A stretch of DNA of 64,000 nucleotides from Leucoraja ocellata (lineage: Eukaryota), in assembly GCA_036785375.1 (NCBI GenBank), contig JAWMAR010000471.1, positions 1,178,001 to 1,242,000 on the forward strand, read 5' to 3'. This document shows, piece by piece, positions 28,479 through 63,634 of this stretch. A program made the position numbers and the translations under genes. The notes under the pieces are model-generated. The model searched no databases, was not told the origin of the DNA, and was given only the letters and a program-made list of their open reading frames with translations. Each line of letters starts with the position of its first letter. The first letter of the stretch is position 1.

Positions 28479-29663
28479 CCCCATTATGTTGGCAGAGTTG
28501 ACATATGGACACCTGGAGGAGTGTATCATCACTTCATTTATTAGCTGTTGGTTTGTGAACGAGAGTGCACGAGCAATGGTTGATTTTAGTACAAGATATC
28601 TTCATTTTAATTCATAATTGACAGAATATTTTATATTATTCACAGTTTGCGAGGGAAGAGGAGCAATAGGTAGATACAAAGTTAACCCCCAACCAGCCCC
28701 AATTTTGTAGTATCAGGGAACATTATGCGGCTTGCCGCCTCTTGAGTGCAAATGAACAGCAGGCAGTATCTCTACAGGAAAACGATAGATGACGTTTCTG
28801 GTCAGGATCCTTCTTCCGTCTGAAAGTAGGGCGAGGCTACTGGATGCAAGAGTAGGCCAGAACGAGGCAAGGGAGGCAACACGTGACTAGGAAATGAAGG
28901 AGCCCATAATGGCCCATTGTTGGCTGTGGAATAAGTGGTCACAAACAACTACAAAGATGCGAGCAGTACAACTAGCGTGATGACTATGTTGGGGGAGAGG
29001 GTGAGAGAAAGGGAGTCAAGCGACCTACGAGATGCTGTTCCTCCATTTTGTGCGTGGCCTCGCTCTAGCAGTTGAGGAGTACAACGACAGAATGGTTTAT
29101 ATGGGAATGGGTAGAGGTGTTAAAATGTTTGCCCACTGGGGAACGTAAAGGCCAATGTGGAAATTGATTTATTACCGTACATGGGAGCCACAGAGTCACG
29201 GAGTCACAGAGTGATACAGTGTGGTATCAGGACCTTCGGCCCAACTCGCCCACACCGGCCAACAATATCCCAGATACACCAGTCCCACTTGCCTGCGCTT
29301 GGTCCATATCCCTCCAAATCTCTCCTATCCAAGTAACTTTCTAACTGTTGCATAAACGACGGGATAGTCCCAGGCACAAGTACCTCTTGTCGCAGCTTGT
29401 TCCGTACATCCACCACCCTTTGTATGAAAATGTTTCCCCACCGAATCCTCTTAAATATGTTTCCCTTCTCCTTGATCCTATGTCCTCTGGTCGTAGATTC
29501 ACTGGGCAAACGACTCTGTGCATCTAACCGATATATTCATCTCGTGATTTTGTATTTCTGGCACTCCTCACATATAGCTTTACTTTCGGTAGAAGTTTTC
29601 CGAATACAGAAGGTATTTTAATCCCGGTATCTGTATGAAACTTTACACAATCTACATCATCCG

Positions 29664-30430
29664 GTAAATTTACATGGTAAATGGCAAGGGAATTGAAGAA
29701 TGCAGGTGAACAGAGGTATCTGGGGATAACTGTGTACAGTTCCCTGAAAATGGAATCTCATGTAGATAGGGTGGTAAAGAAAGCTTTTGGTGTGCTGGTC
29801 TTTACAAATCAGAGCATTGAGTATAGACGTTGGGATGTAATGTCAACATTGTACAAGGCATTGGTGAGGCCAATTCTGGAGTATGGTGTACAATTTTGGT
29901 CGCCTAATTATAGGAAGGATGTCAACAGAATAGAGAGAGTACAGTGGAGATTTACTAGAATGTTGCCTGGGTTTCAGCAACGAAGTTACAGAGAAAGGTT
30001 GAACAAGTTAGGGCTTTATTCTTTGGAGCGCAGAAGGTTAAGGGGAGACATGATAGAGGTCTTTAAAATGATGAGAGGGATATACAGAGTTGACGTGGAT
30101 AAGCTTTTCCCATTGAGAGTAGGGAAGATTCAAACAAGGGGACATGACTTGAGAATTAAGAGACTGAAGATTAGGGGTAACATGAGGGGGGACTTCTTTA
30201 CTCAGAGAGTGGTGGCTGTGTGGAATAAGCTTCCACTGAAGGTGGTGGAGGCAGGTTCGTTATTATCATTTAAAAATAAATTGGATAGTTATATGGACGG
30301 GAAAGGAATGGAGGGTTATGGTCTCAGCGCATGTATGTGGGACTAGGGGTGAATACGTGTTCGGCACGGACTAGAAGGGTCGAGATGGCCTGTTTCCGTG
30401 CTGTGATTGTTATATGGTTATTTGGTTATA
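29664..30430 (+). mobile_element. CR1 3' fragment (second subfamily), specific to duplicon A
   Basis: 221-aa ORF 29681..30346; inserted at catcatccg|ctgct with short atccg duplication; absent at the paralogous site ~49190. Confidence 0.92.
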
Positions 30431-30807
30431 TCCGCTGCTAAAACAGCAGATTATCCTCAAACCGAAAACCTCGTCAATGAGCAATGATACGTTTTTTTCA
30501 ATGATGAAAGGAAATCATCAAACAACACGATGCACCTATTCAACTGAAAATCTTCACTCGTTTTGAAAACAATATGTTCCAGGCATATGTATACATATTC
30601 GTGAAAACACATAAGTTGATTGAACGGGGCACATGGGAATGCGTACAAGAGGTGAGCCTCAATTGAGCCCATTAACCTCCGAAGCAGCTGGGCGTGTCCG
30701 ACAGGGCGAATGGACATAAAATGTCCACACATTAAATGCGGTATTTCCACATAAACCTTGCAGCAAAGCAACGCATGAAGCCCAGCTGGTCACTCGTTTT
30801 TGTTATA

Positions 30808-32961
30808 TTACTTTAACTTACACTTTACCGATTTAAATATTTTTCCAATGCAAATGATCGGATATGTTAGCACACGGAACAGCTCCTCTCTGAACTTGCT
30901 CTGGGTCACGGTGTAAATGGCCGTGTTGGTGCAGGAGCTCAGCAGTTGAAGCATATTTCCAACCTTTTCAAATTCTTCTGCGGGATTTTTCCATGCCTTG
31001 AACACAAACAGTTTCCAACTTCGAACCGCAATAAAATGTGCGACACTTGTGGCCCAGAGCAGGATGAAGGAGCTCGAGATTGCCAGAAGTAAACGACCGA
31101 CCGTCTGCGGTTCACCATCTCCTGGTCTTTCTTTCTCTCCCCACCGCTGAGGTCCCGGAGGTTCCTGCGGACCCGGCTGGCCACGAAAATACGTCTGACG
31201 GTGAGCGCGTTAAACAACAAAATCAGGCAGAATGGAATCACCGGGGTGAACAACTGTTCGGCCCAGGAGAACACCAACCATTCGGCATGAACGTAAAAAT
31301 CTACGAGTTTGAGGCAGCCCAGTTCTCCACCCATTCCGAGATAAGAAGTGTATGCAAAGGGCAAGGGTAGATTTTTGAGGCAGATGACCGGGCTCACCGT
31401 CAGGATAACAATCGTCGCGGTTCTCTCGGTGCAATATTTGTTTTTCATGTTCTGAGTAGAAATCGCAACAAAGCGATCAAAGGTGAAAGCGACCGTGAAC
31501 CACACAGAACAATTTACCGTGACCGATGCCAGGTAGATTGTTATTTTGCACACAGATGTGTAGGGCAAGGAGGCATGCCACCAATACATATCAGCAATCC
31601 GCTGAAATATCACCTCACAGAAAATCACAGAGAGGTCCGCGGTCGCCATGGCTACCATGTAACGAGTGATGCACTTGGAGAGGCCGCACTTGCCACGGGA
31701 CAGGATCAAAATCGCCATCAGATTCACTGGGAAAGAATGAAAACAGAAACTGATTAATTGTGTGGTGGGTGGGAGCAGATGCAGTCATTTAAACCTGTGT
31801 CGCCAGTGGTAGAGACTGTTTATTTAACGAATCAGTATTTGGGTCAATCATCCGTCAATCGTTTGCCAGAAAGATGTTCATTCAGTAACTTATTAAATTC
31901 CTGATTAGCAAAATTAGTGGGATTGCCTTATGTAGAAAATAATTACATAAAGCTGAAAATATTGGTACAAGAGGCAATCCGATTTTAGAAATCAGGAATT
32001 TAATCTGCAAATGGATAAAATACCGTTTACCAAGATTAGTGGGAGTTCCTTTTGTACTAATCTTCACAACATTATGCCAACCGTTTGATGTTGATGTAAA
32101 ATATATAATATTTTCAAGCGGTGAGTCAGTGTCTCTAATTTTTTTTTATTGCTGAGAAGTGGGCAACTTTTGAGTCGGGGCATGTAGTCAATCGCGGCCT
32201 GGATTAACGTGGTCTGTTTTCCATTGGGCCTTCGAGAATGCATCTCCCAACACGGGGCCAAGGAAAGGGATTCAGTGAAGCGCAGCAAATATAATTACAA
32301 ACCCCCTTCGCAAACACGGCTAACAACATAACGGGCAGATATTTTCTGCCGAGCAGCGGGCGGGCCTGTGTACTGCACCTGACAAGAGCCAATGGTGGTG
32401 TATCTCAGTGGCGCAAGTAATATCTCTGGAGGACATCGACAGGCGACGTAGTAAAATCAATACGGGCATTGATTTTAGTAAAAAAAGCCGTGAGGGCTAC
32501 ATTTCTGCCAGCTTGAATGAGCGGCATCCATCACATATCGCTCCTGAGGTGGATATCGCTTACTTTATTTTAGTTTAGGAATACAGCGCGAAAACACAAC
32601 ACCGGCCCACCTAATCCGCACCGATCGCGCACACTCACAACAGCCGGCACACACAAGGTACAATTTATTTTACTTATATGGAGCGTGGGAGCAAACCGAA
32701 GATCTCGGGGAAAACCCAAAAGGATACGGGGAGAACGTACAAACTCCGTACAGACAAGCGCTGTAAGACAGTTACTCTCGCGCCGCGCCAGCGTGCCGCC
32801 CGAACCCCCCGCTGGGCTACTCGCTATGTCCTCTTAACCTTTAATATTCTGCGCTCTTCAAACATGAGATGAACCGACGATTACCTACCAGGTATACCGA
32901 TTGCTGCCAGAATCGGATAATACACAAGTCCTATTTTTACCTCGATCGGAATATCGTGCAT
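30808..32961 (-). pseudogene. GPR139/142-like GPCR, copy 3; exons 32889..32961 and 30808..31726, single 1-bp frameshift near 31091
   Basis: Exon 1 MHDIPIEVKIGLVYYPILAAIGIP. Exon 2 is split into ORFs 30939..31727 and 30808..31005 by AAAA>AAA relative to the other copies. Confidence 0.85.
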
Positions 32962-33149
32962 TTTAATGCGACGGTCCAGGCGATCACTCCTTGTGCTGCC
33001 GCTCAGCGGTTGTCAGCGAAACAAACAAATATCTGGAATATTTATAATGCAAATAAATGGAAAAACAGGCAACGAGCTTACATCCCTGTGGACATTACTT
33101 ACACACTTCTGAACAAACATCTACTGTTTTCCGTGTAATACTAAAAATC

Positions 33150-36100
33150 ACCAGTCTTGAACTGTCCCCCCTGGGTCTGCACGCCCCCAACATCGGGAAC
33201 ATGGTTCGTGACTCTAGCGTGTCCAAACCCTTAATAACCTTATATATTTAAATAAGAACCCCTCTCATTCTTCCAAATTCCAGAGTATACAAGCTCAGTC
33301 GCTCCATTCTCTCAGCATGTAACAGCCCCAACATTCCGGGAATTAACCGTGTGAACTAACGCTGCATTCCCTCAGTAGCAAGACTGTTGGACCGGCTAGA
33401 TGCAGGAAAAATGTTCCGGATATTGACAGTCCAGAAACAGATGTCCCAGTTTAAGGATAAGTGGTAGGCCATTAAGAAACATAGAAACAGAAAATTCGAT
33501 GCCGGAGTAGGCCATTCGGTCCTTCGAGCCAGAACCGCCATTCAATGCGATCGTGGCAGATCATCTAAAATCAGTACCCCGTTCCTGTTTATTCCCCATA
33601 TCCTATGATTCCTTTAGCCCCAAGAGCTAAATCTAACTCTCTCTTGAAACATCCAGTGAATTGTCCTCCACTCTATTCTGTGGCAGAAAACTCCACAGAT
33701 TCACAAGTCTCTGGGTGAAATAGAATTCCCCTCATCTGAGTCCAAAATTACCTATCCTTATTCTTAAACGTTGACTCCCTGTTCTGGACACCCCCAACAT
33801 CGGGAACATGTTTCCTGCATCTAGCCCATCCAACCCTTTTAGAATTGTATGTTTCTATAAATCCCTCTCATCCTTCAAAATGCCCGTGAATACAAGCACA
33901 CTCAACCCATTCTTTCATCATATGTCAGTCCCGCCATCGCGGGAACTAATCTAGAGAACCGATGCTGAACTTCCTCAATAATAATCAAGTCCTTCCACAA
34001 ATTAGGAGACCAAAATCATTCACAAATGCGGCCTCAACAGGGCCCAAAACCACTTAGGACTGAGATAAGGAAAATCTATTTCACCCAGAGAGTTGTGAAT
34101 CGGTGGAATGCTCTAACAAAGAAGGCAATGGAGGGCAATTCACTGGAAGATTTCACGAGAGAGTTAGATTTAGCTCTTAGGGCTAATCGAAACAAGGGAT
34201 AGAAACATAGAAACATAGAAAATAGGTGCAGGAGTAGGCCATTGGGCCCTTCGAGCCTGCACCGCCATTCGATATGATCATGGCTGATCATCCAACTCAG
34301 TATCCCATCCCTGCCTTCTCTCCATACCCCCTGATCCCTTTAGCCACAAGGGCCACATCTAACTCCCTCTTAAATATAGTCAATGAACTGGCCTCAACTA
34401 CCTTCTGTGGCAAGGAGTTCCACAGATTCACCACTCTCGGTGTAAAACATGATTTTCTCATCTCGGTCCTAAAAGACTTCCCTCTTATCCTTAAACTGTG
34501 ACCCCTAGTTCTGGACTTCCCCAACATCGGGAACAATCTTCCTGCATCTAGCCTGTCCAACCCCTTAAGAATTTTGTAAGTTTCTATAAGATCCGCCCTC
34601 AATCTTTTGAATTCCAGCGTGTACAAGCCGAGTCTATCCAGTCTTTTTTCATATGAAAGTCCTGCCATCCCACGAATCAGTCTGGTTAACCTTCTCTGTA
34701 CTCCCTCTATGGCAAAAATGTATTTCCTCAGATTAGGAGACCAAAACTGTACGCAATACTCCAGGTGTGGTCTCACCAAGACCCTGTATAACTGCAGTAG
34801 AAACTCCCTCCTCTTATACTCAAAACGTTATGGGGGGAGAAAGCAGGAACGGGGTACTGATTTTAAATAGAAACATCGAAACATAGAAAAATAACTGCAG
34901 GAGGAGGGTATATGGCCCTTCGAGTCAGCACCGCCATGCATATTGATCGTGGCTGCTCATCCACTATCGGTAACGCGTGCCTGCCTCCTCATGTGTCTTG
35001 ATTCTCCCAGCCCCAATAGCTCTATCTCCCTCTCTTTTCATTTCATCCAGCGAATTGGCCTCCACTGCCCTTTGTGACAGAATTCCCCATATTCACAACT
35101 CTCTGGGTGAAAAAGATTTTTCTCATCTCAATTTTAAATGCCCTCCCCTTTACCCTTAGACGATGGCCCCTGGTTCTGGACTCCCATAGCAGTTGCAAAA
35201 AAAAATCCTGCATCTAGCGTGACCAGTCCTTTTATAATTGTTTCTTTTTCCACAAGGCGCCCTCTCATCTTTCTAAATTCCAGTGAATATATGCCCAATC
35301 TTTCTAATCTTTCCTCTTATGAGTCCCGCCATACCGTGGGTTACCCTTGTGAACCACGCTGCACTCCCTCCATAGCAAGGATTTCCTTCTCCAAATTGGG
35401 TGACCAAAACTGCACACAATACTGCCGATGTTGTCTCACCAAGGTCCTGCACAACAGCAGAAGGATCTGTACTACTATGCGCAAATCCTCACGTTATGAA
35501 GGCCAACATGCCATTAGCTTTCTTCACTACCTGGTGAACCTGAATGTTCGCATTAAGTGACTGGTGGACAAGGACACACAAGTCTCGTCGCACATCCCTT
35601 TTTCCCCAAATCTGACACAATTGAGATAATAATCACACACGTGTGAATGTGTGTGAATGTGTGTGAGTGTTTGGTGGTGGTCGGAGGGGCCGTAGGCGCA
35701 GATTAGCAGCCACGCTTCCGTCAGTCTGCCCCAGGGCAGCTGTGGCTACAGAAGTAGATCACCACCACCGAGTGTGACTGTGGAGTGAATGAATAATGCG
35801 ATGTAAAGCGCCTTGAGTATCTAGAAAGGCGCTATATAAATCCCATCCATTATTATTATTATTAATAATCTGCTTCCATGCTATTGCCGTCAAAGTGGAT
35901 AACCTCACATTTACCTACATTATGCAGCATCTGCCATGAATCTGCCCACTCACTCAATCTGTCCAGGTCATCTTACATCCACCTCGCATCCTCTTCGCAG
36001 TTCACACTGCATCCCGGCCTTGTGTCATCTGCAAATTTGCTCGTGTTACTTTTAAATGCATCAGATGTATCATTAATCTATATTGTCAATAGCTGCGGCC

Positions 36101-38000
36101 CCTGCATCGAGCCTTGCGGCATTCTACTCGCCACTGCCTGCCATTCTGAAGGTAACTCCTTCATCCATTTTACTTGTCACATTCTCAAAACATTCCAGAA
36201 GATTTGTCAAGCAGCATTTCCTCTTCATAAATCCATGCTGACTTGGACCAATCTTTTAATTGTGTGCAAATGCGCCGTTATTACGTCTTTGATAATTGAC
36301 TCCAGCATCTTCCCCAGCTCCGATGTCAGGCCAACTGTTCTCTAATTTCCCGTTTTCGCTCTCGCTCCTTTCTTGAAAAGTGGGATAACATCAACTACTC
36401 TCCAATCCACATGAACTGATCCTGAATCTATTGAACATTGGAAATGATCACCAATACGTCCACGGATTCTAGAACCACGACCTTGAGTCCCCTGAGATGT
36501 TGACCGTCAGATCCTAGGGATTTATCAGCCTTCAGTCCCAGCGGTTTACCCAATACTATTTATGGCCCAATGCAAATGTCTTTCAGTTTCTCCGTCTGTC
36601 TTATAGACAATAGACAATAAACAATAGGTGCAGGAGTAGGCCATTCGGCCCTTCGAGCCAGCAGCGCCATTCAATGTGATCATGACGGATCATCCCCAAT
36701 CAGCACCCCGTTCCTGCCTTCTCCCCATATCCCCTGACTCCGCTATTTTTAAGAGCCCTATCTAGATCACTCTTGAAAGCATCCAGAGAGCCCGCCTCCA
36801 CTGCCATCTGAAGTAGAGAATTCCATAGACTCACCACTCTCTGTGAGAAAAAGTGTTTCCTCGTCTCCGTTCTAAATGGCTTACTCCTTATTCTTAAATT
36901 GTGGCCCCTGGTTCTGGACTCCCCCAACATCGGGAACATGTTTCCTGCCTTTAGCGTGTCCAGGCCCTTAACTATCTTATATGTTTCAATGAGATCTCCT
37001 CTCATCCTTCTAAACTCCAGAGGGTACAAGACCAGCTGCTCTATTCTCTCAGCATATGAGAGTCCCGCCATCCCGGGAATTAACCTTGTAAACCTACGCT
37101 GTACTCCCTCAATAGCAAGAATGTCCTTCCTCAAATTAGGGGACGAAAACTGCACACAATACTGCAGATGTGGTCTCGCTAGGACTTTGTAATATGTCTC
37201 ACCAGTCTTCTAGTACATCTGGGAGATGTTTGTGTCTTAGTTAGCGAAAACGGAACTAAAGTACATGTACAACTCTTCTGACATTTCCTTGTTCCCCATA
37301 ATAATATCAACAGCTTCTGCTGTTAAGGGACCCACATCTGCCTTTCCTAATCTTTTTCTCTTAACATACCTAAATGTGTTTTTACAGCCCTTCTTTATAT
37401 TCCTGGCGAGCTTACCTTTATACTTCGTCTTTTCACACCGTATTGCCCTTTCTGTTACTTCTGATGTTTCCCAATCATCTAGCTTCCCGCCAGTCTTTGC
37501 TATTTTATTCATCTTTTCCTTTAGTTTTATACCGTCCGCAACATCCCTTGTCAGCCACGGTTGCCTCTTACTCCCCTTAGAATAGTTCTTCATCTTTGGA
37601 CTGAAATGATCCTGCATCTTCTGCATAATGGACAGAAATTCCTGCTATTGCTGTTTCTTCGTCATTACTGTTTGAATCATTTTCCAGTCGACCTTGGCCA
37701 GGTCTTCTCCCATGCCGTAATTCCCCTTTGTTCAACCGCAACACTGACAATTGTGATTTAACTTTCTCCCTCTCAAATTGCAGATTAAAACTTATCATAT
37801 GATGGTCACTACCTCCTTGCGGTTCCTTACCTAGATTTCCCCTACTAAATTTGGTGGATTAAACAACACTAAATCCAGAATTACCTTATCTCTTGTATGC
37901 ACCAATGCAAGTTGCTTTAAGAATCCATCTCAGAGGCACTCTACAAACTCCCTTTCTTGTGTTCCAGAACCAACCTGATTTCAGTCAGTCCCTCTGTCAA
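33150..38000. mobile_element. CR1 mosaic with nested younger CR1 3' ends (e.g. ~34200-34825, ~36605-37190)
   Basis: ORFs 34297..34779 and 36700..37155 are CR1 RT C-termini. Confidence 0.9.
35635..35862 (+). mobile_element. 5'-truncated SINE with Meta-domain-like core and L2-type tail
   Basis: ggtggtcggaggggcc...cagccacgcttccgtcagtctgccccagggcagctgtggctac core; gtaaagcgccttgag...aaggcgctatataaat; (TTA)n tail; TSD taataatc. Confidence 0.6.
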
Positions 38001-38419
38001 CCCTCGCAAGGGCGTCCATTTCACCCTCACCAACAGAGCTACCCCACCTCCAGTGCCCAAATGCCTGGATCATATTGAATGTCAGTGCTGTCTCGAAAGG
38101 AGAATGACCTACGCATACAGCTATTTTCTGTGGTTCTGTGTTTCACCATCCCTGCTGGTGACTGCATTCATTGCAATCTGTGTGTTACCTTTCACTGGGT
38201 CATTGACAGTCGGAATTATACCGGTACCCAACCCGACTGGGGCCTCGCGTTGACCTTTCGTCGATGTTATAAGCCGCGGTGCAGCAATTCCCACCACCTT
38301 TGGCCGTCCAGCCTCTCATCAAACAAACAAACAATAAAACAGGCCTTGCACTGGCCGTCCTGCATCATTGCGGAGTTGCACAGGGGAGCGGCTGCCTCGG
38401 CTGACAAAACACCTCCGCC

Positions 38420-38750
38420 ACCCGTTCAGTTTAGTTTATTTGTCACTTATACCAAGGTACAGAGAAAGACGTTTGTTGCATACTAACCAATCAGTGGAGA
38501 GAAAATACATGGTAACAATCGAACCATTCACAGTGTACAGCTATATAATAAGGGAATACAGTGCAAGATAAAGCCATCAGTCCGATAAGGTTAATCAGAG
38601 GGTCAGCGTTGAGATAGATAGTAGTGCAGGATTGCTCTCTAGTTGTGGCAGGATGGTTCAGTTGCCTGATAACCGCTGGGAAGACAATCTCCCTGAATCT
38701 GGAGGTGTGAGTTTGCACACTCCTATATATTCTGCCCGATTGGAGCGAGG
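38420..38750 (-). mobile_element. Rex1/Babar-like 3' fragment
   Basis: Minus-strand ORF contains THTSRFREIVFPAVIRQLN. Confidence 0.65.
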
Positions 38751-38829
38751 ACTGTGCGTTCACCCTATCCACTACCCCCCCCCCCCCCCCCCCCCCCCAA
38801 TATGTTCAGAAGCCTGAATTGTTCAAATT

Positions 38830-44500: not shown

Positions 44501-44502
44501 TC

Positions 44503-51139: not shown

Positions 51140-53920
51140 CTTGTTCTTAAACTGTGCCACCCCCTGGCTCTGCACTCCCCAACATCGGGAACATGGTTCG
51201 CGATTCTAGCGTGTCCAAACCCTTAATAATCTGAAGAAGGGTTTCGGCCCGAAACGTCGCCTATTTCCTTCGCTCCATAGATGCTGCTGCACCCGCTGAG
51301 TTTCTCCAGCTTTTTTGTGTAACCCTTGATAATCATATATGTTTAAATACGAGCCCCTCTCATTCTTCTAAATTCCAGAGTATACAAGATCAGCCGCTCC
51401 ATTCTCTCAGCATGTAACAGCCACACCATCCCGGGAATTAACCTTGTGAACCTACGCTGCATTACCTCAGTAGCAAGAATATTGGACCGGCTAGATGCAG
51501 GAAAATGTTCCGGATATTGAGAGAGTCCAGAAACAGAGGTCCCAGTTTAAGAATAAGCGGTAGGCCATTTAGAAACATAGAAACAGAAAATTCGATGCAC
51601 GAGTAGGCCATTCGGTCCTTCGAGCCAGAACCGTCATTCAATGTCTTCATGGCTGAACATCTAAAATCAGTACCTCGTTCATGTTTGTACCCCATATCCC
51701 TTGATTCCTTTAGTCCCGAGAGCTTAATCTAACGTTCTCTTGCAACGTCCGGTGAAAATTCCTCCACTCTATTCTGTGCCTGAGAATTCCACAGATTTAC
51801 AACTCTCTGGGTGAAAGAGACGTGTCCTCATCTCAGTCCTAAATGGCCTATCCGTATTCTTAAACATTGAACCCTTATTCTCGACTCCACCAACATCGAG
51901 AACATGTTTCCTGCATATTGCCTTGCCAACCCTTTAAGAATTGTATATGTTTCTTTAACATACCCTCTCATCCTTCCAAATGCCAGTGAATACAAGCACA
52001 CTCAACCCATTCTTTCATCATATGGCAGTTCCGCCATCGCGGGAATTAACCTGGAGAACCGATGTTGCACTTCCTCAATAGAAATCATGTCCTTCCACAA
52101 ATTAGGAGGCCAAAATCATTGACAAATGCGGTCTCACAATGGCCCAAAACAACTTAGGACTGAGATGAGGAAAATCTGTTTCTCCCAGAGAGTTGTAAAT
52201 CTGTGGAATGCTCTACCAAGAAGGCCGTGGAGTCCAATTCACTGGAATATTTCACACGAGAGTTAGATTTAGCTCTTCGGGCTAAACGAAACAAGGGATA
52301 TGGGGAGAAAGCAGGAACGGTGTACTGATTTTAAATAGAAACATCGAAACATAGAAATATAGGTGCAGGGAGAGACTATAAGGCCCTTCCAGTCCGCACC
52401 GCCACGATCATAGCTGCTCATCCACAAACAAATACCCGTGCCTTTCTTCTTCCCATGCCCCTGCATTCCGCTAGCCCCAAGACCTCTCGCTGTCTTTTAA
52501 TTTCATCCAGTGAATTGGCCTCCATTGTCTTCTGTGGCAGAGATTTCCACAAATTCACAACTCTCTTGGTGAAAGAGATAATTCTCATCTCAGTTTTAAA
52601 TGACCTCCCCTTTCTTCTAAGACTTTGGCCCCTTTTGCTCCCCCAGCATTAGGAACATTTTTCCTGCATCTAGCTTGTCCAGTACTTTTATAATTTTATA
52701 TGTTTCTATAAGATATTCCCTTCATCCTGCTGAATTCGAATGAATACATGCCCAGTCTTTCTCATATTCCTCAAATGACAGACCTGCCATACCTGGGATT
52801 AACCTTGTAAACTCCGTCAATAGCAAGGAAGTCCTTCCCCTAATTAGGAGACATAAACTGCACACAATATTCAACATGTTGTCTCACCAGTGCCGTGTAC
52901 AACTGCAGAAGGACCTCCTTACTCGTGTAGTCAAATCCGCTCATTATGAAGGCCAACATGCCATTACATTTCTTTACTACCTGCTGTAGAACACCCAGGT
53001 CACGTTCCACTTCCCATTTTCCCCAATTGAAACCATTGAGATAATAATCTACCTCGATGTTCTTGCCGTCAATGTGTATAATCTCGCATTTACCTGCATT
53101 ATACAGCATCTGCCACGTATCTGCCCACTCACTCAACCTATCCAAGTCACCCCGCAACGACCTGACATCCTTTCCGCAGTTCAAACTGTCACCCAGCGTT
53201 GCGTCATCTGCAAATTTGCTCGTGTTTCTTTTAATTCCATAATCTAAATCATTAATATATATTGTCAATAGTTACGGCCCCTGCACCGAGCCTAGCGGCA
53301 CTCCACTCGCCACTGCCTGCCATTCTAACAGGGACCTTCTTGTTCCATTTTACTTGTCACATTCTCAAACATTCCAGATCGGAGTCAAGCAGGATTTCAC
53401 TTCCATAACTCCATGCTGACTTGGACTAATCATTTTACCGCTATCCAAATGCGCCGTTGTTACTATAAAAATTGACTCTGGCATCTTCCCCAGTTCCGAT
53501 ATCAGGCTAACAGGTCTCTAATTTCCCGTTTTCTCTCTCCCTCCTTTCTTGAAAAGTGGGGTAACATTAGCTCCCCTCCAATACACAAGAACTCATCCTG
53601 AAGCTCTAGAACATTGGAAATGATCAAAAAATACGTCCACGATTTCTAGAGCCACTTCCTTGAGTAGTTGTGATGCAAACCATCACACCCTGGGTATTTA
53701 GCAGGCTACAGTCCCATCAGTTTACCCAATGCTATTTCTTGCCCAATGCAAATTTATTTCAGTTCCTCTTTCTCCAGAGACCCTCTGTCCTCTAGTATAC
53801 CTGGGAGATTGTTGTGTCTTCCCTAGCGAAGATAGAACCAAAGTACCTATTCAACTCTTCTGCCATTTCCTTGTTCCCATAATTAATTCACCTGTTTCTG
53901 CCTTCTATGGACTGACATCT
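51140..53920. mobile_element. CR1 mosaic paralogous to 33150-36600, with a short Penelope terminus at ~51231-51320
   Basis: KFADDATL and other CR1 fragments in the same order as duplicon A. Confidence 0.88.
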
Positions 53921-54220
53921 GACTGAATGGTTCAGATGCTCTACTGAACGTCAGAGAAACGTCAAAGCCACGTCAGACGTTTCACATCAGTTTCTGGGCC
54001 ACCAAACAAATCAGCACATTTAACGGACCCCGCCTCTAACTCTCCGTCTATTCGCACATCGATTGGGATTTTTTCAAAAATCCCCAGGACAACGCACTCA
54101 CCGAAACGAACAGACCAGCTGTTGCTCCAGCTCAGTTCTCCGGGATAGGCTGCAGGATCTGTCCGGCGACCTGGGATCCAGACTCTCGTCAAGTAAACCA
54201 TTTATCCCGGAGAAGGCGCG

Positions 54221-54704
54221 ATGGGAATCCTCCTGTTGTTTGTGCTGTCACTCTGCTTACGCCGTGAGTACCGGTCCCCTACTCCCACACAGTGCGGGTT
54301 TAACATAAAACTACTCGCGTCCACTCCGACCTGAATTTCAAACACTGCTCGCGATGTATCCTTCTGTCATGGTTCGCCTGGAAATCCCACTCACCTCTCC
54401 CTGTGTTTTATTTACAGACTCCGTCAGTCAGTCAGTGACCCAGAGCCCGAATGCGGTGGCTGGAAAAGAGTGTGAGCCCGTCACCATCACCTGCCGTTTC
54501 CAAGAAGATTCCAGTGGCAGGTGCGTACGTCGTCAAACACATTTCGTCAAGCGAGCACAACCCGGTGCTGAACCGCAGCAGATCAAAAGAGTTGGACGGT
54601 TTGTTGTGTCGGCCAATAAAAGGAGAATTACCTTGAAAATTCTTGGTTTGAGAGTTGAGGACCTGGGCACATATTACTGTCGAGCTGTGTTAATGTGCAG
54701 GGGG
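54221..54704 (+). CDS. NAR-TCR V gene segment 2: leader 54221..54263, V exon 54418..54704
   Basis: Leader MGILLLFVLSLCLR; open V exon with five Cys; RSS CACAGGG-22-ACAAAAACC at 54705-54742. Confidence 0.88.
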
Positions 54705-55068
54705 CACAGGGATGGGCCAGCGCTTCGCGCAGCACAAAAACCCTCACTGCACATTCTGCTAGCAACGTGAAGACCGGAGGTGAATCCACCGGGTAAACCC
54801 ACGGGCCCGCTTTGTCTCGCCTGTCCTGCATTATGGGTTACACCCGATGAAATGCGTGCGATTGAAACAATGGGGTTTTCTCCATTTGGCGAGTGCGGCT
54901 CGATAATGCCCCCTGTACCGAATATGGTGTAAACGAACTGCCATCGAGAATGACTGTCCACTCTTCTGATGCACAACTCCAGACTGGATCCAGTTACAGA
55001 AACTGCAATCTGAAAAATGCATTCGCTGAACCTTAATCTCCTGCCGGCCCGTCTCGCCGGACGCCTGG

Positions 55069-55140
55069 GGATTTGAAAGTGACGTGTAACAACGTGTGGC
55101 AGTCGGGCTATCCACAGTGTAGGAGAGTCGAGTAAAAACT
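55069..55140 (+). other. D segment 2 (55097..55112 TGGCAGTCGGGCTATC) with 12/12 RSSs
   Basis: Same RSS pair as D1. Confidence 0.85.
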
Positions 55141-55451
55141 CACCCCATTCAAGATATATATTCTTGGGTTCCGGAACCAAAATATAACGATTATTGTTCG
55201 TGACGCTGTAGTCCAGATAAATTACACAGGGATTACCACATTCCTTTAACATTCCTTAATAATTGGTTCCCTGTTTCTCAAAGCACACAAGCCTGCGTGT
55301 TGGAGATCACTCTGCTCTTAGCTCTGTTTCTTAGCGGGAACCGGTCGACCCACCGAGGATTGGAGAACAAGGCCAGTAACTGGTTGGTCTGAAACTCCTG
55401 GAATAATTGGACACCGATTCTAATGGTAGCCGGGCAAATAGAGGTGAGGAC

Positions 55452-55533
55452 TGTTCTTGCACTACGAGCATCGAGAGACGGGGCACTGTGCGCTATCAGT
55501 ATGGGTCGGGGACTACGGTGACTGTCACAGCCG
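55452..55533 (+). other. J segment 2 (55491..55533, RYQYGSGTTVTVTA) with 23-RSS
   Basis: TGTTCTTGC-23-CACTGTG; IgNAR-like YGxGT motif; G|GTAAG donor. Confidence 0.92.
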
Positions 55534-56027
55534 GTAAGTACCGTAAACCTCTCTTATCCACGGTTGTTCTTGGAAATATTCGGTTCTCTTTAAAATTGTA
55601 TCACGAGGCATCAATTGCTTTCCAATTGAAACAGATTCCAGTGCCAGAAACTTGGGCTAGATGTTACGGTACACGTGAGTCCAATGAGAGAATATGTCGG
55701 GCTCCCCGGGAGCACAAAGTTAATCAGGTTGAAGAATAGCTTCTTCCCCAAAATCATCAGGATCGGGAACACCATACCGTGCTAACCACAGCTATGGATT
55801 CTAGGCAGCCACAAGCAAATGCGGACGCTGACATCGGATTCTGAAGTCTAGATTCTAAATTTCGGCTATCAATGTTCTCCTGAAATGCTGCCTGACCCGC
55901 GGAGTTATTCCTACCACCAAACCGCCGGCTTGCTCCAAAACACTGCGCCAATTCACCCTCTTGGTCTACCAGTTACTGCAGCACTTTGTGTTCATAAACT
56001 TTTCATTATTGTCTCTGGTTATACAAG

Positions 56028-57040
56028 CATAGAAACATAGAAATTAGGTGCAGGAGTAGGCCATTCGGCCCTTCGAGCCTGCACCGCCATTCAATATCAT
56101 CATGGCTGATCATCCAACTCAGTATCCCGTACCTGCCTTCTCTTCATACCCTCTGATCCTCTTGGCCATAAGGGCCACATCTAACTCCCTCTTAAATATA
56201 GCCAATGCACTGGCCTCAACTACCCTCTGTGGCAGAGAATTCCAGAGATGCACCACTCTCTGTGTGAAAAAAGTTCTCCTCATCTCGGTTTTAAACGATT
56301 CCCCACTTATCCTTAAGCTGTGACCCCATGTCCTGGACTTCCTCAACATCTGGAACAATCTTCCTGCATCTAGCTTGTCCACCCCCTTAAGAATGTTGTA
56401 AGTTTCTATAAGATCCCCTCTCAATCTCCTAAATTCTAGAGAGTATAAACCAAGTCTATCCAGTCTTTCTTCATAAGACTGTCTAGACATCCCAGGAATC
56501 AGTCTGGTGAACCTTCTCTGCACTCCCTCTGTGGCAATAATGTCCTTCCTCAGATTTGGAGACCAACACTGTACGCAATACTCCAGGTGTGGTCTCACCA
56601 AGACCCTGTACAGCTGCAGTAGAACCGCCCTGCTCCTATACTCAAACCCTTTTGCTATGAAAGCCAACATACCATTCGCTTTTTTTACTGCCTGCTGCAC
56701 CTGCATGCATACCTTCAATGACTGGTGTACCATGACACCCAGGTCTCGCTGCATCTCCCCCTTTCCCAATCGGCCACCATTTAGATAATAGTCTGCTTTC
56801 CCGTTTCTGTACCAAAATGGATAACCTCGCATTTATGTAGGTAGTTGAGGACAGTTAATTGGCTATATTTAAGAGGGAGTTACATGTGGACCGTGTGGCT
56901 AAAGATATCAGGGGGTATTGAGAGAAGGCAGGTACAAGATACTGTGTTGGATGATCAGCCTTGATCATATTGAATGGCGGTGTTGGCTTGCGGGGCCGAA
57001 TGGCCTACTCCTGCACCTATTTTCTATGTTTCTATGTTTC
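56028..57040. mobile_element. Young CR1 3' fragment (-, 237-aa ORF 56119..56832) abutting a + strand CR1 tail
   Basis: RPHLEYCVQ, RRLRGDLIE; GAAACATA tails at both outer ends. Confidence 0.92.
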
Positions 57041-58486
57041 TAGCAGAAAATTTGATACAGGATTAGGCCATACTGTCCTTCGAGCCAGCGCCACCATTCA
57101 ATGTCGTCATGGCTGATCATCTAAAATCAGTACCTCGTTCCTGTTTTTACCCCATATCCCTCGATTCCTTTTCGTCCCAAGAGCTAAATCTAACTCTCTT
57201 GAAACATCCAGTGAATATTCTGTGCCAGAGAATTCCACAGATTTACAACTCTCTGGGTGAAAGATATGTGCCCTCACCTCAGTCCCAAATGGCCTATCCT
57301 TATTCTTAAACTGTGAATCCTTATTCTGGACTCCACCAACATTGGGAACATGTTTCCTGCATCTAGCCTATCCAACCCTTTAAGAATTGTATATGTTTCT
57401 ATAAAATCCCCTCTCGTCCTTCAAAATCCCCTCTCGTCCTTCGGTGAATACAAGCCCTATCATCCTATTCATTCATCATATGTCAGTCCCGCCATCGCGG
57501 GAATTATCCTGGAGAACCGATGCTGCACTTCCTCAATAGCAATCATGTCCTTCCACAAATTAGGAGACCAAAATCGCTCACAAAAGCGGTCTCATAAGGG
57601 CCCAAGACAACTTAGGACTGATATGAGGAAAATCTGTTTCACCCAGAGAGTTGTGAATCTGTGGAATGCTCTACCACAGAGGCAGTAGAGGAAAATTCAC
57701 TGGAAGATTTCACGAGACAGTTAGATTTAGCTCTTTGGGGCTAAAATAAACAAGGGATATGGGGAGAAAGCAGGAACGGGGTACTGATTTTAAATAGAAA
57801 CTTCAAAACACAGAAGATAGGTGCACGAGGAGGCTATATGGCCCTTCGAGTCAGCACCGCCATGCATATTGATCATGGCTGCTCATCCACTATCAGTAAC
57901 ACGTGCCTGCCTTCTCCTCATTCCTCTTGGTTCACCCAGCCCCAAGAGCTCTATCTGGATCTATTTTAATTTCATCCAGCGAATTGGCCTCCATTGCCTT
58001 CTGTGGTAGACATTTCCACAAATTCACAACTCACTGGGTGAAAAAAGATTTTCCCCATCTCAGTTTTAAATGATCTCCCCTTTACTCTTAGTCTGTGCAT
58101 TCTGGTTCTGGACCCCGCCAGCATTTTGAACATCGTTCCTGCATCTAGCTTGACCAGTCCTTTTATAATTGTTTCTGTTTCTGCAAGATATCCCCTCATC
58201 CTTCTAAATTCCAGTGAATACATAGAAACATAGAAAATAGGACTGTGCGTCCACCCTATCTACTCCCCTCATTGTTCAGCTGCCTGAATGGTTGAGATGG
58301 TCAACTGGACGTCAGAGAAACGTCAGAGCCACATCAGATTCTAGGCCACCAAGCAAAGCAACAGGTTTAAGGATCCCCTTCTCAAACTCTCTGTCTCCTC
58401 GCACATCGATTGGGATTCTTTCAAACGTTACCAGTACACCCCCCGCAGCGAAACGAACAGGCCATCTGAGGTGCCCGCTCAGTTCT

Positions 58487-58657
58487 AAGAGGGAGTTAGA
58501 TGTGGCCCTTGTGGCTAAGGGGATCAGGGGATATGGAGAGAAGGCAGGTACGGGATAGTGAGTTGGATGATCAGCCATGATCATATTGAATGGCGGTCCA
58601 GGCTCGAAGGGCCGAATGGCCTACTCCTGCACCTAATTTCTATGTTTCTATGTTTCT
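58487..58657 (+). mobile_element. Short CR1 tail inserted in the cassette-3 promoter region
   Basis: Interrupts ctcagttct|ccgggatagg, which is contiguous in cassettes 1 and 2. Confidence 0.92.
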
Positions 58658-58740
58658 CCGGGATAGGCTGCAGGATCTGTCGGGAGACCTGGTTTTCCAG
58701 CCTCTCGTCACGTGAACCATTTATTCCCGGATACGGTGCG

Positions 58741-58776
58741 ATGGGAATCATCCTGTTGTTTGTGCTGTCGCCATGA
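58741..58776 (+). pseudogene. Inactivated leader exon of NAR-TCR cassette 3
   Basis: 11-bp deletion (actctgcttac) and donor GTGAGT>ATGAGT; reads MGIILLFVLSP*. Confidence 0.9.
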
Positions 58777-58926
58777 GTACCGGCCCCCTACTCCCACACA
58801 GTGCGGGTTTAACATAAAACAACTCGAGTCCAGTCCGACCTGAATTTCAAACACTGCCCGCGATGTATCCTTCTGCCGTGGTTCGCCTGGAATTCCCACT
58901 CACCTCTCCCTGTGTTTCATCTACAG

Positions 58927-59219
58927 ACGCCGTCAGTCAGTCAGTGACCCAGAGCCCGAATGCGGTGACTGGAAAAGAGTGTGAGTCCGTCACCATCACC
59001 TGCCTTTTCCAAGAAGGTTCCAGTGGCAGCTACGAATTAAATGTAGGACATTTCTTCAAGCAAGCACAACCCGGTGCTAAACGGCAGCGGATCACAACAG
59101 GTGGACGGTTTGTTGGGTCAACCAATAAAACGGAAAATACGTTTACGTTGAAAATTCTTAGTTTGAGAGTTGAGGACACGGCCACATATTACTGTCAAGC
59201 TGAATACAGGTGCAAAACA
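58927..59219 (+). CDS. NAR-TCR V exon 3 (open frame, no functional leader)
   Basis: Acceptor ctacag; ..GKECESVTITC..EDTATYYCQAEYRCKT; RSS CACAGTG-22-ACAAAAACC at 59220-59257. Confidence 0.85.
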
Positions 59220-59582
59220 CACAGTGATGGGCCTGCGGTTCCAGCAATACAAAAACCCTGACGGCAGATTCTAGTGGCAACGTGAAGATACGATGTGAAT
59301 CCACCGGGTAAACCCACGGGCCCGCTTTGTCCCGCCTGCCCTGCATTCTGGGTTGTACCGGATGAAATGCGTGCGATTCAAACAATGGGGTTTCTCTATT
59401 TGGCGAGTGCGGCTGAATAATGCCCCCTGTACCGAATATGGTGTAAACGAACTGCCATCGAGAATGACTGACCACTCTTCTGATGCACAACTCCAGACGG
59501 GATCCAGATACGCAAACTCCAATCTGAAAAATGCATTCGCTGAACGTTAATCTCCTGCCCGCCCGTCTCGCCGGGAGCCTGG

Positions 59583-59654
59583 GGATTTGAAAGTGACGTG
59601 TAACAACGTGTGGCAGTTGGGATATCCACAGTGTTGAAGAGTCGAGTAAAAACT
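59583..59654 (+). other. D segment 3 (59611..59626 TGGCAGTTGGGATATC) with 12/12 RSSs
   Basis: Same RSS pair as D1 and D2. Confidence 0.85.
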
Positions 59655-59965
59655 CACTCCATTCAAGATATATATTCTTGGGTTCCGGAACCAAAATCAT
59701 ACGATTATTGTTCGTGACGCTGTCGTCCAGATAAATTACACAGGGATTACCACATTCCATTAACATTCCTTAATAATTGTTTCCCTGTTTGTCAAAACAC
59801 ACCGGCCTGCGTGTGGGAGATCATTCTGCTCTTAGCTCTGTTTTTTAGCTGGAACCGGTCGACCCACCGAGGATTGGGGAGCAAGGACAGTAACTGGTTG
59901 GTCTGAAAGTCCTTGAATAATTGGACAGCGATTCTAATGGTTGCCGGGCAAATCGCGGTGTGAAC

Positions 59966-60061
59966 TGTTCTTGTACGGCGAGCATCGAGAGACGGGGCAC
60001 TGTGGACGATTGGGACACTACTATCAGGATGGGACGGGGACGATGGTGACTGTCACAGCCG
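59966..60061 (+). other. J segment 3 (60005..60061, RLGHYYQDGTGTMVTVTA) with 23-RSS
   Basis: TGTTCTTGT-23-CACTGTG; G|GTAAG donor. Confidence 0.9.
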
Positions 60062-63000
60062 GTAAGTACCCTAAACCGTCTCGATTAATATTGGATAATG
60101 AGGCATGAATTGCTTTCCAATTGAAACAGATTCTATTGATAAAAGTTTCCAGCAACTTGGTCAAGATGTTACGGTACGCGTGAGTCCGATGAGAGGATAT
60201 GTGGGGCTCGCCTACATCAGGTTCAAGAATAGCTTATTCCCCAAAAGCATCAGGGTCTGGAACATCACACAGAGCTAACCACAGCTGTGGATTTCCAGGC
60301 AGACACAAGGATGCTGATATTGGGCTCTGAAATCTAGAAACCAAATGTCGGCTACCAATGTTCTCCGGAAATGCTGTCTGACCTGCGGAGTTATTCCTAC
60401 CCACAAACCGCCGACTTGCAACCTGTCACCACGCTGGCTCCAGAGCACTATCCAGAGGTGCGCGAATCCACGCTGAATCTCAATCAAATCTCAATCAGAG
60501 TGATAAGTAATGTGGGATATTTTCTGTTGGGAACAGTTAATAAGATCACAAGACATAGAAGCAGAATCTGTTTATTCGGATAATTGTGTCTGATCCGCCA
60601 TTCGATCATGGCTTAATATTTTACTCCTCCCAACCTCATTCGCTTGCCTTCTGCCTGTAACGTTTGACGCCGTTATTATCAAGAAACTGTTAATCTCGGC
60701 TTTCAAAATACCCACTGAATTAACTTCTCCAATTTCTGGTCCCAGCTTTCTCCTCCTCTTCCCATCTCTCCCTCAGCCCACTGTCTCCACCTCTTCCTTT
60801 CTTCAACGCCCCCCCCCCCCCCCCCCCCCCATCACAGATTAGCCTGAAGAAGGATCTCGAACCGAAACATTGCCTATTTCCTTCGCTCGCTTCACCAAAT
60901 GTGATCAAATCGGTGCATTAATAACATCGACATTACATCCCGGCTTTTATATTCTAGTCATCTCGAAATAAATGCCAACATTTAAAGAGTCTCCCTCACC
61001 GCCGATCCACTCTACAAAGTCACATTTTGGAATTCCCGCACCAACATTCCCAAGTCCCTTTGAACCTCCATTTCTGAATTCCCTCCCCATTTAGAAAATT
61101 ATCGACGTCGGTATTCCTTCCGCCAAAGTGCATGCCCCTATAGTGTGCTGTGTAGTATTCCATCTGCCACTTATTTACCCCCCTCTCCCACCCTGTTCAA
61201 GTAACTCTGCAGACTCCATGCTTACTGTACACTACCTGCCCCTTCACCTATTTTTGGCATCGTCCGCGAGATCAGCCGACAATCCATCAATTTCATCATC
61301 CAGATCGTAAACATACAACGGGGAAAGTAGTGGACCCAACATTGACCCATTAGTCAAAGGCAGCAAGCGGAAAATATCACTTCTATTCCAATATTTTGCC
61401 CTGCAACAACAGCCTATCCTCTGTCCAGGCTGAAACCTCATCTCTAACACCAATACTCCAATTTTAATTATCCGCTTCGCGTCCGGCACCAAGAAAGCTG
61501 CATTTCTGACTTTCCTTTGTCCATCCTGCTTGTTGCTATCACAGACAATTTCAACAGGGGCAAGGACCCCCCCCCCCTGACTAGTTCTCGCTGACTTGCA
61601 AATTGTATCATGTGCTTCCAGATAGCACTGAACCGCATTTTTAATAATCGTCTCAAAAATCTTACCAACTATTGAAGTCATGCTAACCGCCTTATAATTA
61701 CAACTGGCTTATGAATGTATCCCATAAAATCTATGGGATTGATCCACGCCCGCTGTGAGCGAAAGCCTGGGAAACAATCTATTTCTTACTCCAAGAAACA
61801 GAGGGAGGTTGGCGGGAGAGTAGATGGGCTGTGAGTGAAGCTGAACCCTCTGTAAAGATTCCACTAACTGAAATCAAACGACAGCTGGCAGACTTGTTGA
61901 AACGGTTCTCTGGAGGGGGGAAATATGAACCGCAAGCAGCAAAAAGCGGGCGACCAAGATTGAAAACCAAAACTGTTCTTCAATTAAACGAAAGTAAAAT
62001 GTAGAAGGACGTGGCCCAGTGAAGCAAAAAAAACAAAACAACTCTTGATACATAAAGGGCAAAGCATTTATCCCGGGTTGTGTAAATTCCACTTAAAATA
62101 TGACCTTTCAGTTGTTGAACACAGAAGGCTGTGGAGGCCAAGTCAGGGGGAAAATAAGGCAGCGATAGATATATTTTTGATTAGTCGAAGCGTCGGAGGT
62201 TTTGACATTGCGGAGAAGGCAGGAGAATGGGGTTCGGAGGGTGACATTGTTCAGCCATTATTGAAAGGCTGAGTGGACCTGATGGGCCGAATGGCCTAAT
62301 TACACCGTTGAAACTTGACTATATCCAGGAAAGGATACACTTCAGTCAAGCTGTGGGGAGAATGACTAGTTCTATTGTTTTAACGCCAAGAACCAATTAC
62401 AAAATGCTAGAGAACCGACAAAGGTAATTTGTCTCATTCACCGGATCCCGACTCACTGAATCAGCTCCACTATTATCCCGTGCTCGCTTTGATTGTTCCC
62501 ACAGCCTGGAATATTTCCAATTTCACTTTCATAATCAGAGTTTGACCTCGCGGATATTCGTCAGTGATTTTCTTCACGGTGGCACAACGGTAACGGCGGA
62601 GGTGCTGCCTAACAGCGCGTTTAGCACCAGAGACCCGAGTCCGATCCAGACTCCGGGTGTTGTTGGTACGGAGTTTGTATGTTCTCCACATAATCTGTGT
62701 GGGTTTTCTCCGAGATCTAGGGTTTCTTCCCACACTCCAAATATGGACAGTTTTGAAGGGTTATTGGCGCTCTATAAATGTAAATATTCCATCGTGTGTG
62801 TAGGATAGTGTTAATGTGCGGGGATTGCAGGGAGGCGCGGACTTGGTGGGCCGAAGGGCCCGTTTCCGCGCTGTGTCCATAAACTAAACTAAACTGAACT
62901 GAACTAATGTAAACTAAACCAAACTATACTAAAGTAAACTAACCTAAACGAAATTAAATCTCCACTCGTCGAGGGAACAATTAAAGGATCCATAAATAAC

Positions 63001-63121
63001 GTTTCCATATATTTTGCAAAATGTGATGAACTACCGGAGACGGTAACTAGTTTCTGTGTGTGTCACAGTCTCCAACAGTCAATGTTAAAACAATAACTAT
63101 TCCACTGTTATTTTTCCACAG

Positions 63122-63466
63122 ATTCGATGTCCGCGGTTTCCCAGAGTACGCCTCAACAATCCTCTCTTTCTGGTGACACTGCCACCCTTAACTGCGTATA
63201 TTCCGGAATCTGCTCGTACACAGTACACTGGTACCGACAGTTCCCAGGGCAGGCTCTGGAATTCCTGCTCCAAAGACACATTTCAGGAAAGCAAGATGAG
63301 GAAGCGGCTGCCGAAGGTCGTATTTCTGGTTCTCTCGATCCTGCCCAGAAAATCAGTCAGTTAACGCTCTCTGAGGTTCTGCCGAGCGACGAGGCTGTGT
63401 ATTACTGTGGGATGAGTCCGCGCATCGCACAGTGGCACAGCGCAGTGAGATAGCTGTACCAAAACC
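63122..63466 (+). CDS. TRDV: Supporting TCRdelta V exon 2 (63122..63427) with 23-RSS (63428..63466)
   Basis: Acceptor tttttccacag; CVYSGICSYTVHWYRQ..DEAVYYC; CACAGTG-23-ACCAAAACC; no leader seen upstream. Confidence 0.88.
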
Positions 63467-63634
63467 TCAGCGTGGCGGGATACAGGCACACAGCACTGCA
63501 GAACATCTGGGGCGCTAACCGAGAACCTCAGTGTAGTATGGATTGTTTACACGTTGCCACGGAAGGAAAGAAAGAAAACATTACAAAGATAAATTATGTT
63601 GAAACTTACAGAAACACAATTAGTCTGGGAAGAG

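Follow-up and report, generated by a model that had tools for sequence, protein, structure and literature searches.

We analysed a 64,000-nt stretch of DNA from the skate Leucoraja ocellata (assembly GCA_036785375.1, contig JAWMAR010000471.1, positions 1,178,001-1,242,000; hereafter the window, to which all positions refer), in which genes for G protein-coupled receptors (GPCRs) lie back to back with cassettes of the NAR-TCR, a T-cell receptor (TCR) with a variable domain of the new antigen receptor (NAR) type. Judged from its homologues, the window would be part of the skate TCR alpha/delta region. The reading that we consider probable is that the GPCRs form a passenger family within TCR homology units, co-duplicated with the cassettes, linked to them in batoids, and keeping a promoter and a selection regime of their own.

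Two blocks, duplicons A and B, have the same order (Table 1): a GPCR gene on the minus strand, an NAR cassette of leader, V, D and J (L-V-D-J) on the plus strand, and a leaderless supporting Vdelta on the plus strand. The original prediction had this order right and missed a second L-V-D-J in block B, where two cassettes stand ahead of one Vdelta. Its distances of 6.2 and 3.3 kb between the head-to-head start codons agree with our measurements from the GPCR ATG to the leader ATG, which gave 6151 bp in A (32961 to 39112) and 3272 bp in B (50949 to 54221). In total the window holds four GPCR genes, three L-V-D-J cassettes (that of block A spanning 39112-40435), two leaderless Vdelta exons and three runs of N (11546-11745, 45911-46051 and 63635-63865).

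Table 1. Features of the window; limits of exons and segments are given under remarks (RSS, recombination signal sequence; LINE, long interspersed nuclear element)
Feature	Position	Strand	Remarks
Left arm	1..9339		Inverted duplication, 99.3% identical to 11746-21092; possible haplotype false duplication
GPCR L1	5952..8215	+	331 aa, open frame; exon 1 5952-6021, exon 2 7290-8215; no V cassette in window
Assembly gap	11546..11745		200 N, separates the inverted arms
GPCR L2	12870..15133	-	Open frame, 1 aa from L1; exon 1 15133-15064, exon 2 13795-12870
Duplicon A	28483..45910		
GPCR A	30808..32961	-	Exon 1 32961-32889, exon 2 31726-30808; 1-bp deletion near 31090
Spacer A	33241..38813		Nested CR1-type LINE fragments; mosaic 33488-34201 orthologous to L1, L2, B, B2
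NAR-TCR leader exon A	39112..39154	+	GT donor intact
NAR-TCR V exon A	39309..39633	+	Exon 39309-39595; perfect heptamer and nonamer, 22-bp spacer
D segment A	39986..40000	+	3' 12-RSS by scan; 5' RSS weak, by eye
J segment A	40379..40435	+	5' 23-RSS and GT donor
Supporting Vdelta A	45404..45748	+	Exon 45404-45709, without leader; splice acceptor, CDR1 cysteine, 23-RSS
Duplicon B	48014..63628		
GPCR B	49692..50949	-	330 aa, open frame; exon 1 50949-50877, exon 2 50611-49692
Spacer B	51233..53922		CR1-type mosaic and LINE fragments
Cassette B1	54221..55533	+	Leader 54221-54263, divergent V 54418-54704 (one heptamer mismatch), D 55097-55112, J 55491-55533
Spacer mosaic, third copy	57044..58223		Upstream of B2, without GPCR
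Cassette B2	58741..60061	+	Broken leader, V 58927-59219, D 59611-59626, J 60005-60061
Supporting Vdelta B	63122..63466	+	Exon 63122-63427; 23-RSS

Duplicons A and B are collinear, matching in 13 blocks at 78-96% identity, and their common history extends to the left part of the window. The spacer upstream of the GPCRs contains a mosaic of nested LINE fragments, which we take to be of the CR1 type (one copy has a reverse transcriptase (RT) domain by Pfam). One CR1 fragment is 82-86% identical among the sites at L1, L2, A, B and B2, compared with 69-76% in the 13 other window copies listed, and the nested CR1 junction of the mosaic matches these five places alone. The mosaic was therefore inherited rather than produced by a chance meeting of similar LINEs, and the shared junction indicates one old block as the common ancestor of the left locus, A, B and B2. 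The mosaic diverged in a star-like fashion: for L2, A, B and B2, each of the six pairwise comparisons gives a value of 11.5-15.0%. The earlier observation that two GPCRs on the left share the upstream mosaic is confirmed, with the reservation, discussed below, that the two may be a single locus.

The GPCR and the cassette have nevertheless come apart in both directions. The spacer upstream of L2 is collinear with that of A up to 19802/38059, a point some 750 bp before the V promoter, with no cassette beyond, and no V, D, J or Vdelta remnants were detected in 1-28480 by blastn (word 7), nhmmer or tblastn with 13 V models; the left locus either lost its cassette or never had one. B2, for its part, retains the mosaic spacer and the cassette in the absence of a GPCR. 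Counting the left locus once, two of the four descendants of the mosaic carry both genes, and the two do not form an obligate unit. Pseudogenisation is likewise uncorrelated, as a frameshifted GPCR A stands beside a cassette with a perfect V RSS and the B2 leader is broken. The proposal that GPCR and cassette were amplified together therefore stands as co-duplication, on the evidence of the collinear blocks and the mosaic, but not as lasting coupling. What the window displays is a non-immune gene duplicated within V-region blocks and variably retained, as in TCR homology units with passengers. A leader-like open reading frame (ORF) at 38107 was considered as a V relic and rejected, being the 3' tail of a CR1 element.

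Divergence between A and B ranges from 1.9% to 18.5% depending on the module, and the nearest neighbour shifts along the GPCR gene: exon 2 of B is 3.5% from L2 and 8.6% from A, and exon 1 pairs A with B. This patchy identity points to conversion or repeated unequal crossing-over. The exon 1 shared by A and B is derived, being 5.5% apart between the two and 24-29% from L2, next to a flanking promoter that differs by just 5-11% among A, B and L2. It departs from the N-terminus kept in the left locus and in other skates, and would reflect either marked divergence of the N-terminus or a conversion whose donor was a paralogue not seen here.

The two GPCRs on the left required separate assessment. 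Their inverted arms (1-9339 and 11746-21092, around the 200-N gap) differ at 63 columns, which are strongly clustered, with none in 6817-9339. The right arm ends at the gap and the left arm runs on into a LINE and the 3' flank, and the left contig, if flipped, would be an overlapping extension of the right contig. On balance we lean towards the view that L1 and L2 are one locus assembled twice, a false duplication; a real palindrome with conversion is possible. If they are one locus, the intact GPCR count becomes two of three, so that the earlier figure of three intact copies out of four is correct as a count of open frames and conditional as a count of genes. In the tract matching 6018-6104, L2 has A/B-like bases at several differing sites. 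The LINE in the 3' flank of L1 (8915-11115) matches the Pfam domains RT and zf-RVT.

Each of the GPCR genes has two exons and encodes a class A receptor with seven helices and DRY-like and NPxxY-like motifs. The sole Pfam match was 7tm_1, above the cut-off in all three proteins scanned (the fourth mirrors L1). The reading frame is open in L1, L2 and B; that of A is shifted at the start of transmembrane helix 6 by the single-base deletion, which makes A a recent pseudogene or a base error. An AlphaFold model of exon 2 of GPCR B (mean predicted local distance difference test score, pLDDT, 75) matched peptide-receptor folds with TM-scores of 0.62-0.73; this fold search singled out no subfamily, and GPR139 was absent among the matches listed. 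The nearest named relatives of the window GPCRs are from Leucoraja erinacea (88%) and Amblyraja radiata (82%). A 34-sequence family profile returned human GPR139 as the best match among solved structures (E 2e-18; runner-up 1.6e-12), with no olfactory receptor among the 60 matches listed, and a single window GPCR protein gave no match to human GPR139 at E 0.001. The profile search, the source names of the homologues and the neighbours in the Atlas all indicate GPR139 as the nearest characterised relative. Orthology to GPR139 is ruled out by the missing single-sequence match together with the multicopy nature of the family. By these comparisons the window receptors are distant GPR139/142-like relatives and not orthologues, and the GPR139/142-like label given earlier holds in the sense of a distant relationship. 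GPR139 is activated by aromatic amino acids or related peptides. In the Atlas the neighbours carry the names GPR139 and FMRFamide receptor-like, which agrees with the grouping of GPR139/142 with protostome MIP and FMRFamide receptors in PMC8514136. From this kinship, small peptides or amino acids are the likely ligands of the window GPCRs.

The cassettes and the Vdelta exons were evaluated against the features of the NAR-TCR given in PMC1845163, namely a cysteine in the a-b loop, the absence of the WYRK tryptophan, and a leaderless Vdelta with a cysteine in complementarity-determining region 1 (CDR1). The a-b loop cysteine is present and the canonical WYRK tryptophan absent in all three V exons, and the leader is intact in two of the three. 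In every cassette we found an RSS at V (22-bp spacer), at the 3' side of D (12) and at J (23), in keeping with V23-12D12-23J joining; the RSS at the 5' side of D fell below the scan cut-off and is weak, as read by eye. Both Vdelta exons are leaderless, contain the CDR1 cysteine and have a 23-RSS downstream. The V-domain homologues include Carcharodon LOC121270138, labelled NARTCR in Table S1 of PMC12227049, and in the tree the window V domains sit in a skate clade with 97% support. These results support the assignment of the cassettes and Vdelta to the doubly rearranging NAR-TCR type, in agreement with the original prediction, whose assignment of V, D, J and Vdelta is matched by both features and homologues. 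No D-J-C delta was found in the window.

The two cassettes of block B have individual peculiarities. The leader exon of B2 (58741-58780) lacks 11 bp and no longer has its donor GT; the J of B2 would still be usable by V-B1, and the J of B1 could splice past B2 to Vdelta. A CR1 fragment is inserted in the B2 promoter (58486-58657). The V of B1 lies on a long branch, with a ratio of nonsynonymous to synonymous changes (dN/dS) of 2.75 against A (p 0.03). Its CDR1 contains an additional cysteine and a further one stands at the start of the germline CDR3, which recalls type II IgNAR. The J of B1 is shorter than the other two, and its G-x-G motif starts tyrosine-glycine. Among the homologues, the Mustelus models P0152, P0154 and P0157 join NAR V-Vdelta to a constant region, two of them under the name TCR alpha, and may be annotation chimeras.

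A bidirectional gene pair is one in which the starts lie within about 1 kb and share one promoter. With ATGs 3.3 and 6.2 kb apart, a LINE-filled spacer and separate promoter-like regions, the GPCRs and leaders are not such a pair. The DNA between the promoter-like regions is LINE debris of 5.6 kb in A and 2.7 kb in B, and at least five repeat hits cover 57% of it in A and 75% in B, which leaves the earlier description of one divergently transcribed unit unsupported. In a scan for promoter motifs, whose matches mark candidate elements and are not proof of function, all three GPCR promoters covered had a TATA box 84-85 bp ahead of the ATG. Both V promoters scanned have two to three half-sites of the cAMP response element (CRE) and no TATA match, and the CRE half-sites are absent from the scanned GPCR promoters. 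The proximal promoter of GPCR A is 5.4% from that of the V-less L2 and 11.1% from that of B.

These data bear on cassette-paired co-regulation, in which joining of Vdelta to Ddelta would place the chosen unit by the TCR delta enhancer and switch on the adjacent GPCR, giving each clone a matched receptor. The head-to-head order in both complete units and the derived exon 1 common to A and B are what such a scheme would produce, and deletional joining would presumably take out the GPCRs further downstream, so that the GPCR of the joined unit comes to lie closest to the enhancer. Yet the uncoupling runs in both directions, the best cassette lies by the frameshifted GPCR A, the spacer has been free to vary in length and content (2.7 vs 5.6 kb), promoter similarity does not follow V linkage (A is nearer to L2 than to B), and in Amblyraja and Pristis the numbers of models do not match, the former having six NAR clusters against two GPCRs of the window clade. 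We regard this scheme as highly unlikely. A strict coupling of the chosen cassette to one particular GPCR, one of the two interpretations offered by the original prediction, does not agree with the same observations, and one-to-one pairing with cassette choice is unlikely; the other interpretation, hitch-hiking, fits the data.

To characterize selection on the receptors, dN/dS was estimated from Nei-Gojobori counts for three GPCR pairs with Fisher p values, the helix bounds being set by eye. The transmembrane and intracellular codons gave 0.38, 0.32 and 0.33 (p 0.002, 0.011 and 0.0002), below 1 in every pair. For the extracellular codons the values were 1.17, 1.76 and 1.20, and in no pair was the excess over 1 significant (p 0.48-0.83). 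Positions that vary are concentrated on the outside, with 33 of 69 extracellular positions variable against 25 of 262 core positions (p 1e-11). Positive selection was not accepted as an explanation for the outer loops, since dN/dS is not significantly above 1 and dS is raised there too; conversion may contribute to their divergence. Neutral decay of the GPCR copies, which the original prediction had named as an outcome that would count against it, is refuted by the core values of 0.32-0.38, and A, unless its deletion is a base error, died recently.

The same values weigh on the suggestion that the blocks are neutral debris or an assembly artefact, that is, dying duplicates or mis-assembled repeats. 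One frameshift, three N gaps and the resemblance of L1/L2 to a false duplication could be cited for it. Against these stand the 2-18% divergence per module between A and B with independent insertions, a core dN/dS significantly below 1, and the co-occurrence of orthologues in independent skate assemblies. For A and B this explanation is largely refuted, and overall we hold it to be extremely improbable.

The GPR139-like homologues fall into 1697 clusters, and the chondrichthyan family is very large; a search against 50% representatives gave 1142 matches at E 1e-10 and 136 at 1e-30. The cross-species results concern the best 120 of the 1697 clusters (P0001-P0120), and the GPCR phylogeny is a quick tree of 73 of these 120 rows and the four window proteins, with A cut at the frameshift. 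Heptranchias accounts for 45 of the best 120 rows, spread over 23 contigs. The family includes species-specific groups with variable extracellular loops. Co-location was inferred where GPCR and NAR records of one species lie on a contig of equal size, a measure of contig sharing and not of gene order or distance.

The window GPCRs nest with two Leucoraja proteins from a 208,102-bp scaffold and two Amblyraja proteins from a 59,888,763-bp chromosome, with 100% support in the Shimodaira-Hasegawa-like approximate likelihood ratio test (SH-aLRT). That scaffold and that chromosome also carry NAR V-Vdelta models; absence of linkage in relatives, the second outcome that would have told against the original prediction, was thus not what we observed. 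On these contig assignments, the GPCR/NAR-TCR arrangement is conserved at least across skates. In the wider clade (98% support), among the rows listed for seven species, GPCR and NAR share a contig in all three batoids and in none of four sharks; for Pristis the sharing is at the chromosome level only, and two of the four sharks have the genes on small scaffolds and are weak negatives. Heptranchias, Pristiophorus and Hypanus were left out of this score. A clean split between batoids and sharks is opposed by a Heterodontus family member from outside the clade on an NAR chromosome, and by clade members of Amblyraja and Leucoraja that also occur on other contigs. The single GPCR listed for Mobula is outside the clade and off the NAR contig. 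Among the rows listed, the ratio of NAR clusters to clade GPCRs on the same contig is 6 (10 members):2 in Amblyraja, 6:1 in Pristis and 1:2 in Leucoraja; these are counts of annotated models, which would miss unannotated pseudogenes. Two GPCR paralogue types are retained at the locus in both other skates. A comparison of 268 GPCR with 59 V proteins gave no matches that would mark chimeric GPCR-V gene models.

An excess of change in the loops was present in all six clade groups tested, four of which are from sharks and were either not scorable or not observed on NAR-TCR contigs. Its occurrence in shark groups identifies the excess as a trait of the family and not a sign of TCR linkage. This matters for a second alternative, co-option at the level of the locus, in which the open TCR delta domain would cause expression in thymocytes or gamma-delta T cells and the GPCRs would serve as germline-encoded sensors with no one-to-one pairing. 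Linkage in all three testable batoids, the long and distinct skate branch (100% SH-aLRT), the purifying core with a diversifying outside, and the two paralogue types kept in both other skates are compatible with it. The same diversification is seen, however, in shark relatives that were not found to share a contig with NAR-TCR, and the scanned GPCR promoters have no CRE half-sites of the kind found before the V leaders. Co-option of this kind is in our estimation unlikely, if the least so of the alternatives.

The passenger reading would account for the observations as follows. In a batoid ancestor, a member of the GPR139-like family would have arrived in the TCR alpha/delta region, and in skates would have ended back to back with an NAR-TCR cassette. 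The block of GPCR, CR1 mosaic, L-V-D-J and Vdelta was presumably copied by unequal crossing-over, with differing parts kept each time, and the copies, whose shared ancestry and patchy identity are observed, would later have been patched by gene conversion. The receptors would be passengers of this birth-and-death process, like the trypsinogens in TRB, and have a TATA-containing promoter-like region and selection of their own, under which the signalling core is conserved and the loops that face the ligand change fast. Their work would be independent of the NAR cassette that a T cell uses.

Three points weigh against this account. The linkage is old, to judge from the shared Leucoraja scaffold and the Amblyraja and Pristis chromosomes, and its long retention could reflect function. 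The derived exon 1 is common to both V-linked GPCRs, which would fit joint selection. Genes among V segments may also be transcribed in thymocytes whatever their origin. A bolder proposal would combine these elements: a batoid GPR139-like branch recruited into the TCR delta locus, where V(D)J deletion leaves the chosen unit's GPCR nearest the enhancer, so that cassette choice sets the germline sensor of a gamma-delta clone, a sensor whose ligand loops have diversified on their own. We give this quite a low probability.

A blastx comparison of the remaining regions of the window with 63 proteins matched nothing beyond the LINE portions of chimeric models, apart from one weak alignment that runs into V-B2, and Pfam searches of 83 of the 204 candidate ORFs (including three LINE ORFs) yielded only retroelement domains and sub-threshold matches. 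The region 24868-25374 has a Pfam match to GIY-YIG, which we presume to be Penelope-like, and a 321-aa frame at 46052-47014 matches zf-RVT. An assembly gap lies about 200 bp past each Vdelta RSS, at the same spot in both units (45911-46051 and 63635-63865). At the left edge of duplicon A, two short stretches have inverted copies of 90-92% identity elsewhere in the window: 27948-28083 at 63866-64000, after Vdelta B, and 28385-28477 at 47131-47223, before duplicon B. They may mark breakpoints of the duplication or the beginning of another inverted unit.

The arrangement of GPCR and NAR-TCR is real, probably unreported, and of a known kind. NAR-TCR itself is already known (PMC1845163, PMC6795676 and PMC5931798), as are passengers and homology units in TCR loci (PMC2685407). 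We found no description of a GPCR in NAR-TCR units or of an expanded chondrichthyan GPR139-like family in a search that did not cover subscription papers on shark TCR loci and so does not establish absence from print. There is no GPCR term in the main text or supplement PDF of PMC12227049, whose Table S1 holds only antigen-receptor and marker genes, or in the text of PMC10620051, and nothing relevant in the main text of PMC11979771. Jumps in the LOC numbering of that Table S1 were weighed as a sign of interleaved genes and set aside, as they allow no interpretation. The larger lead is the GPR139-like family itself, which is very large in cartilaginous fishes, combines conserved cores with outer loops that vary, and could represent a chemosensory or immune repertoire of receptors so far unrecognised. 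Should NAR-TCR cells express the receptors, V(D)J choice would be tied to a GPCR repertoire, and the receptors would offer a first handle on what those cells sense; if cassette choice sets the sensor, antigen-receptor rearrangement would choose a GPCR.

Several known systems resemble the window in part. Its cassettes follow the NAR-TCR of cartilaginous fishes in having a leader, an NAR-type V with its own D and J, and then a leaderless Vdelta with a CDR1 cysteine, and block B resembles the shark NAR-TCR models P0130 and P0131 in having several NAR V ahead of one Vdelta. Unlike in known NAR-TCR cassettes, a GPCR lies 3-6 kb upstream on the opposite strand and was copied with the cassette. Olfactory receptor genes adjoin and intersperse the TRA/TRD V genes of mammals. 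The window shares with these a class A GPCR multigene family at the TCR alpha/delta locus, but its GPCRs are two-exon and GPR139-like. Human GPR139 and GPR142 are distant from the window family, which has very many copies per genome. The mammalian TRB locus, with its trypsinogen and DBH-like passengers, likewise has a non-immune family in the V region and duplicated blocks that keep different components (PMC2685407). In contrast to the TRB passengers, which are shared across mammals, the passenger described here lies within the same duplicated block as a V-D-J cassette and is a receptor with diversifying loops, seemingly limited to batoids.

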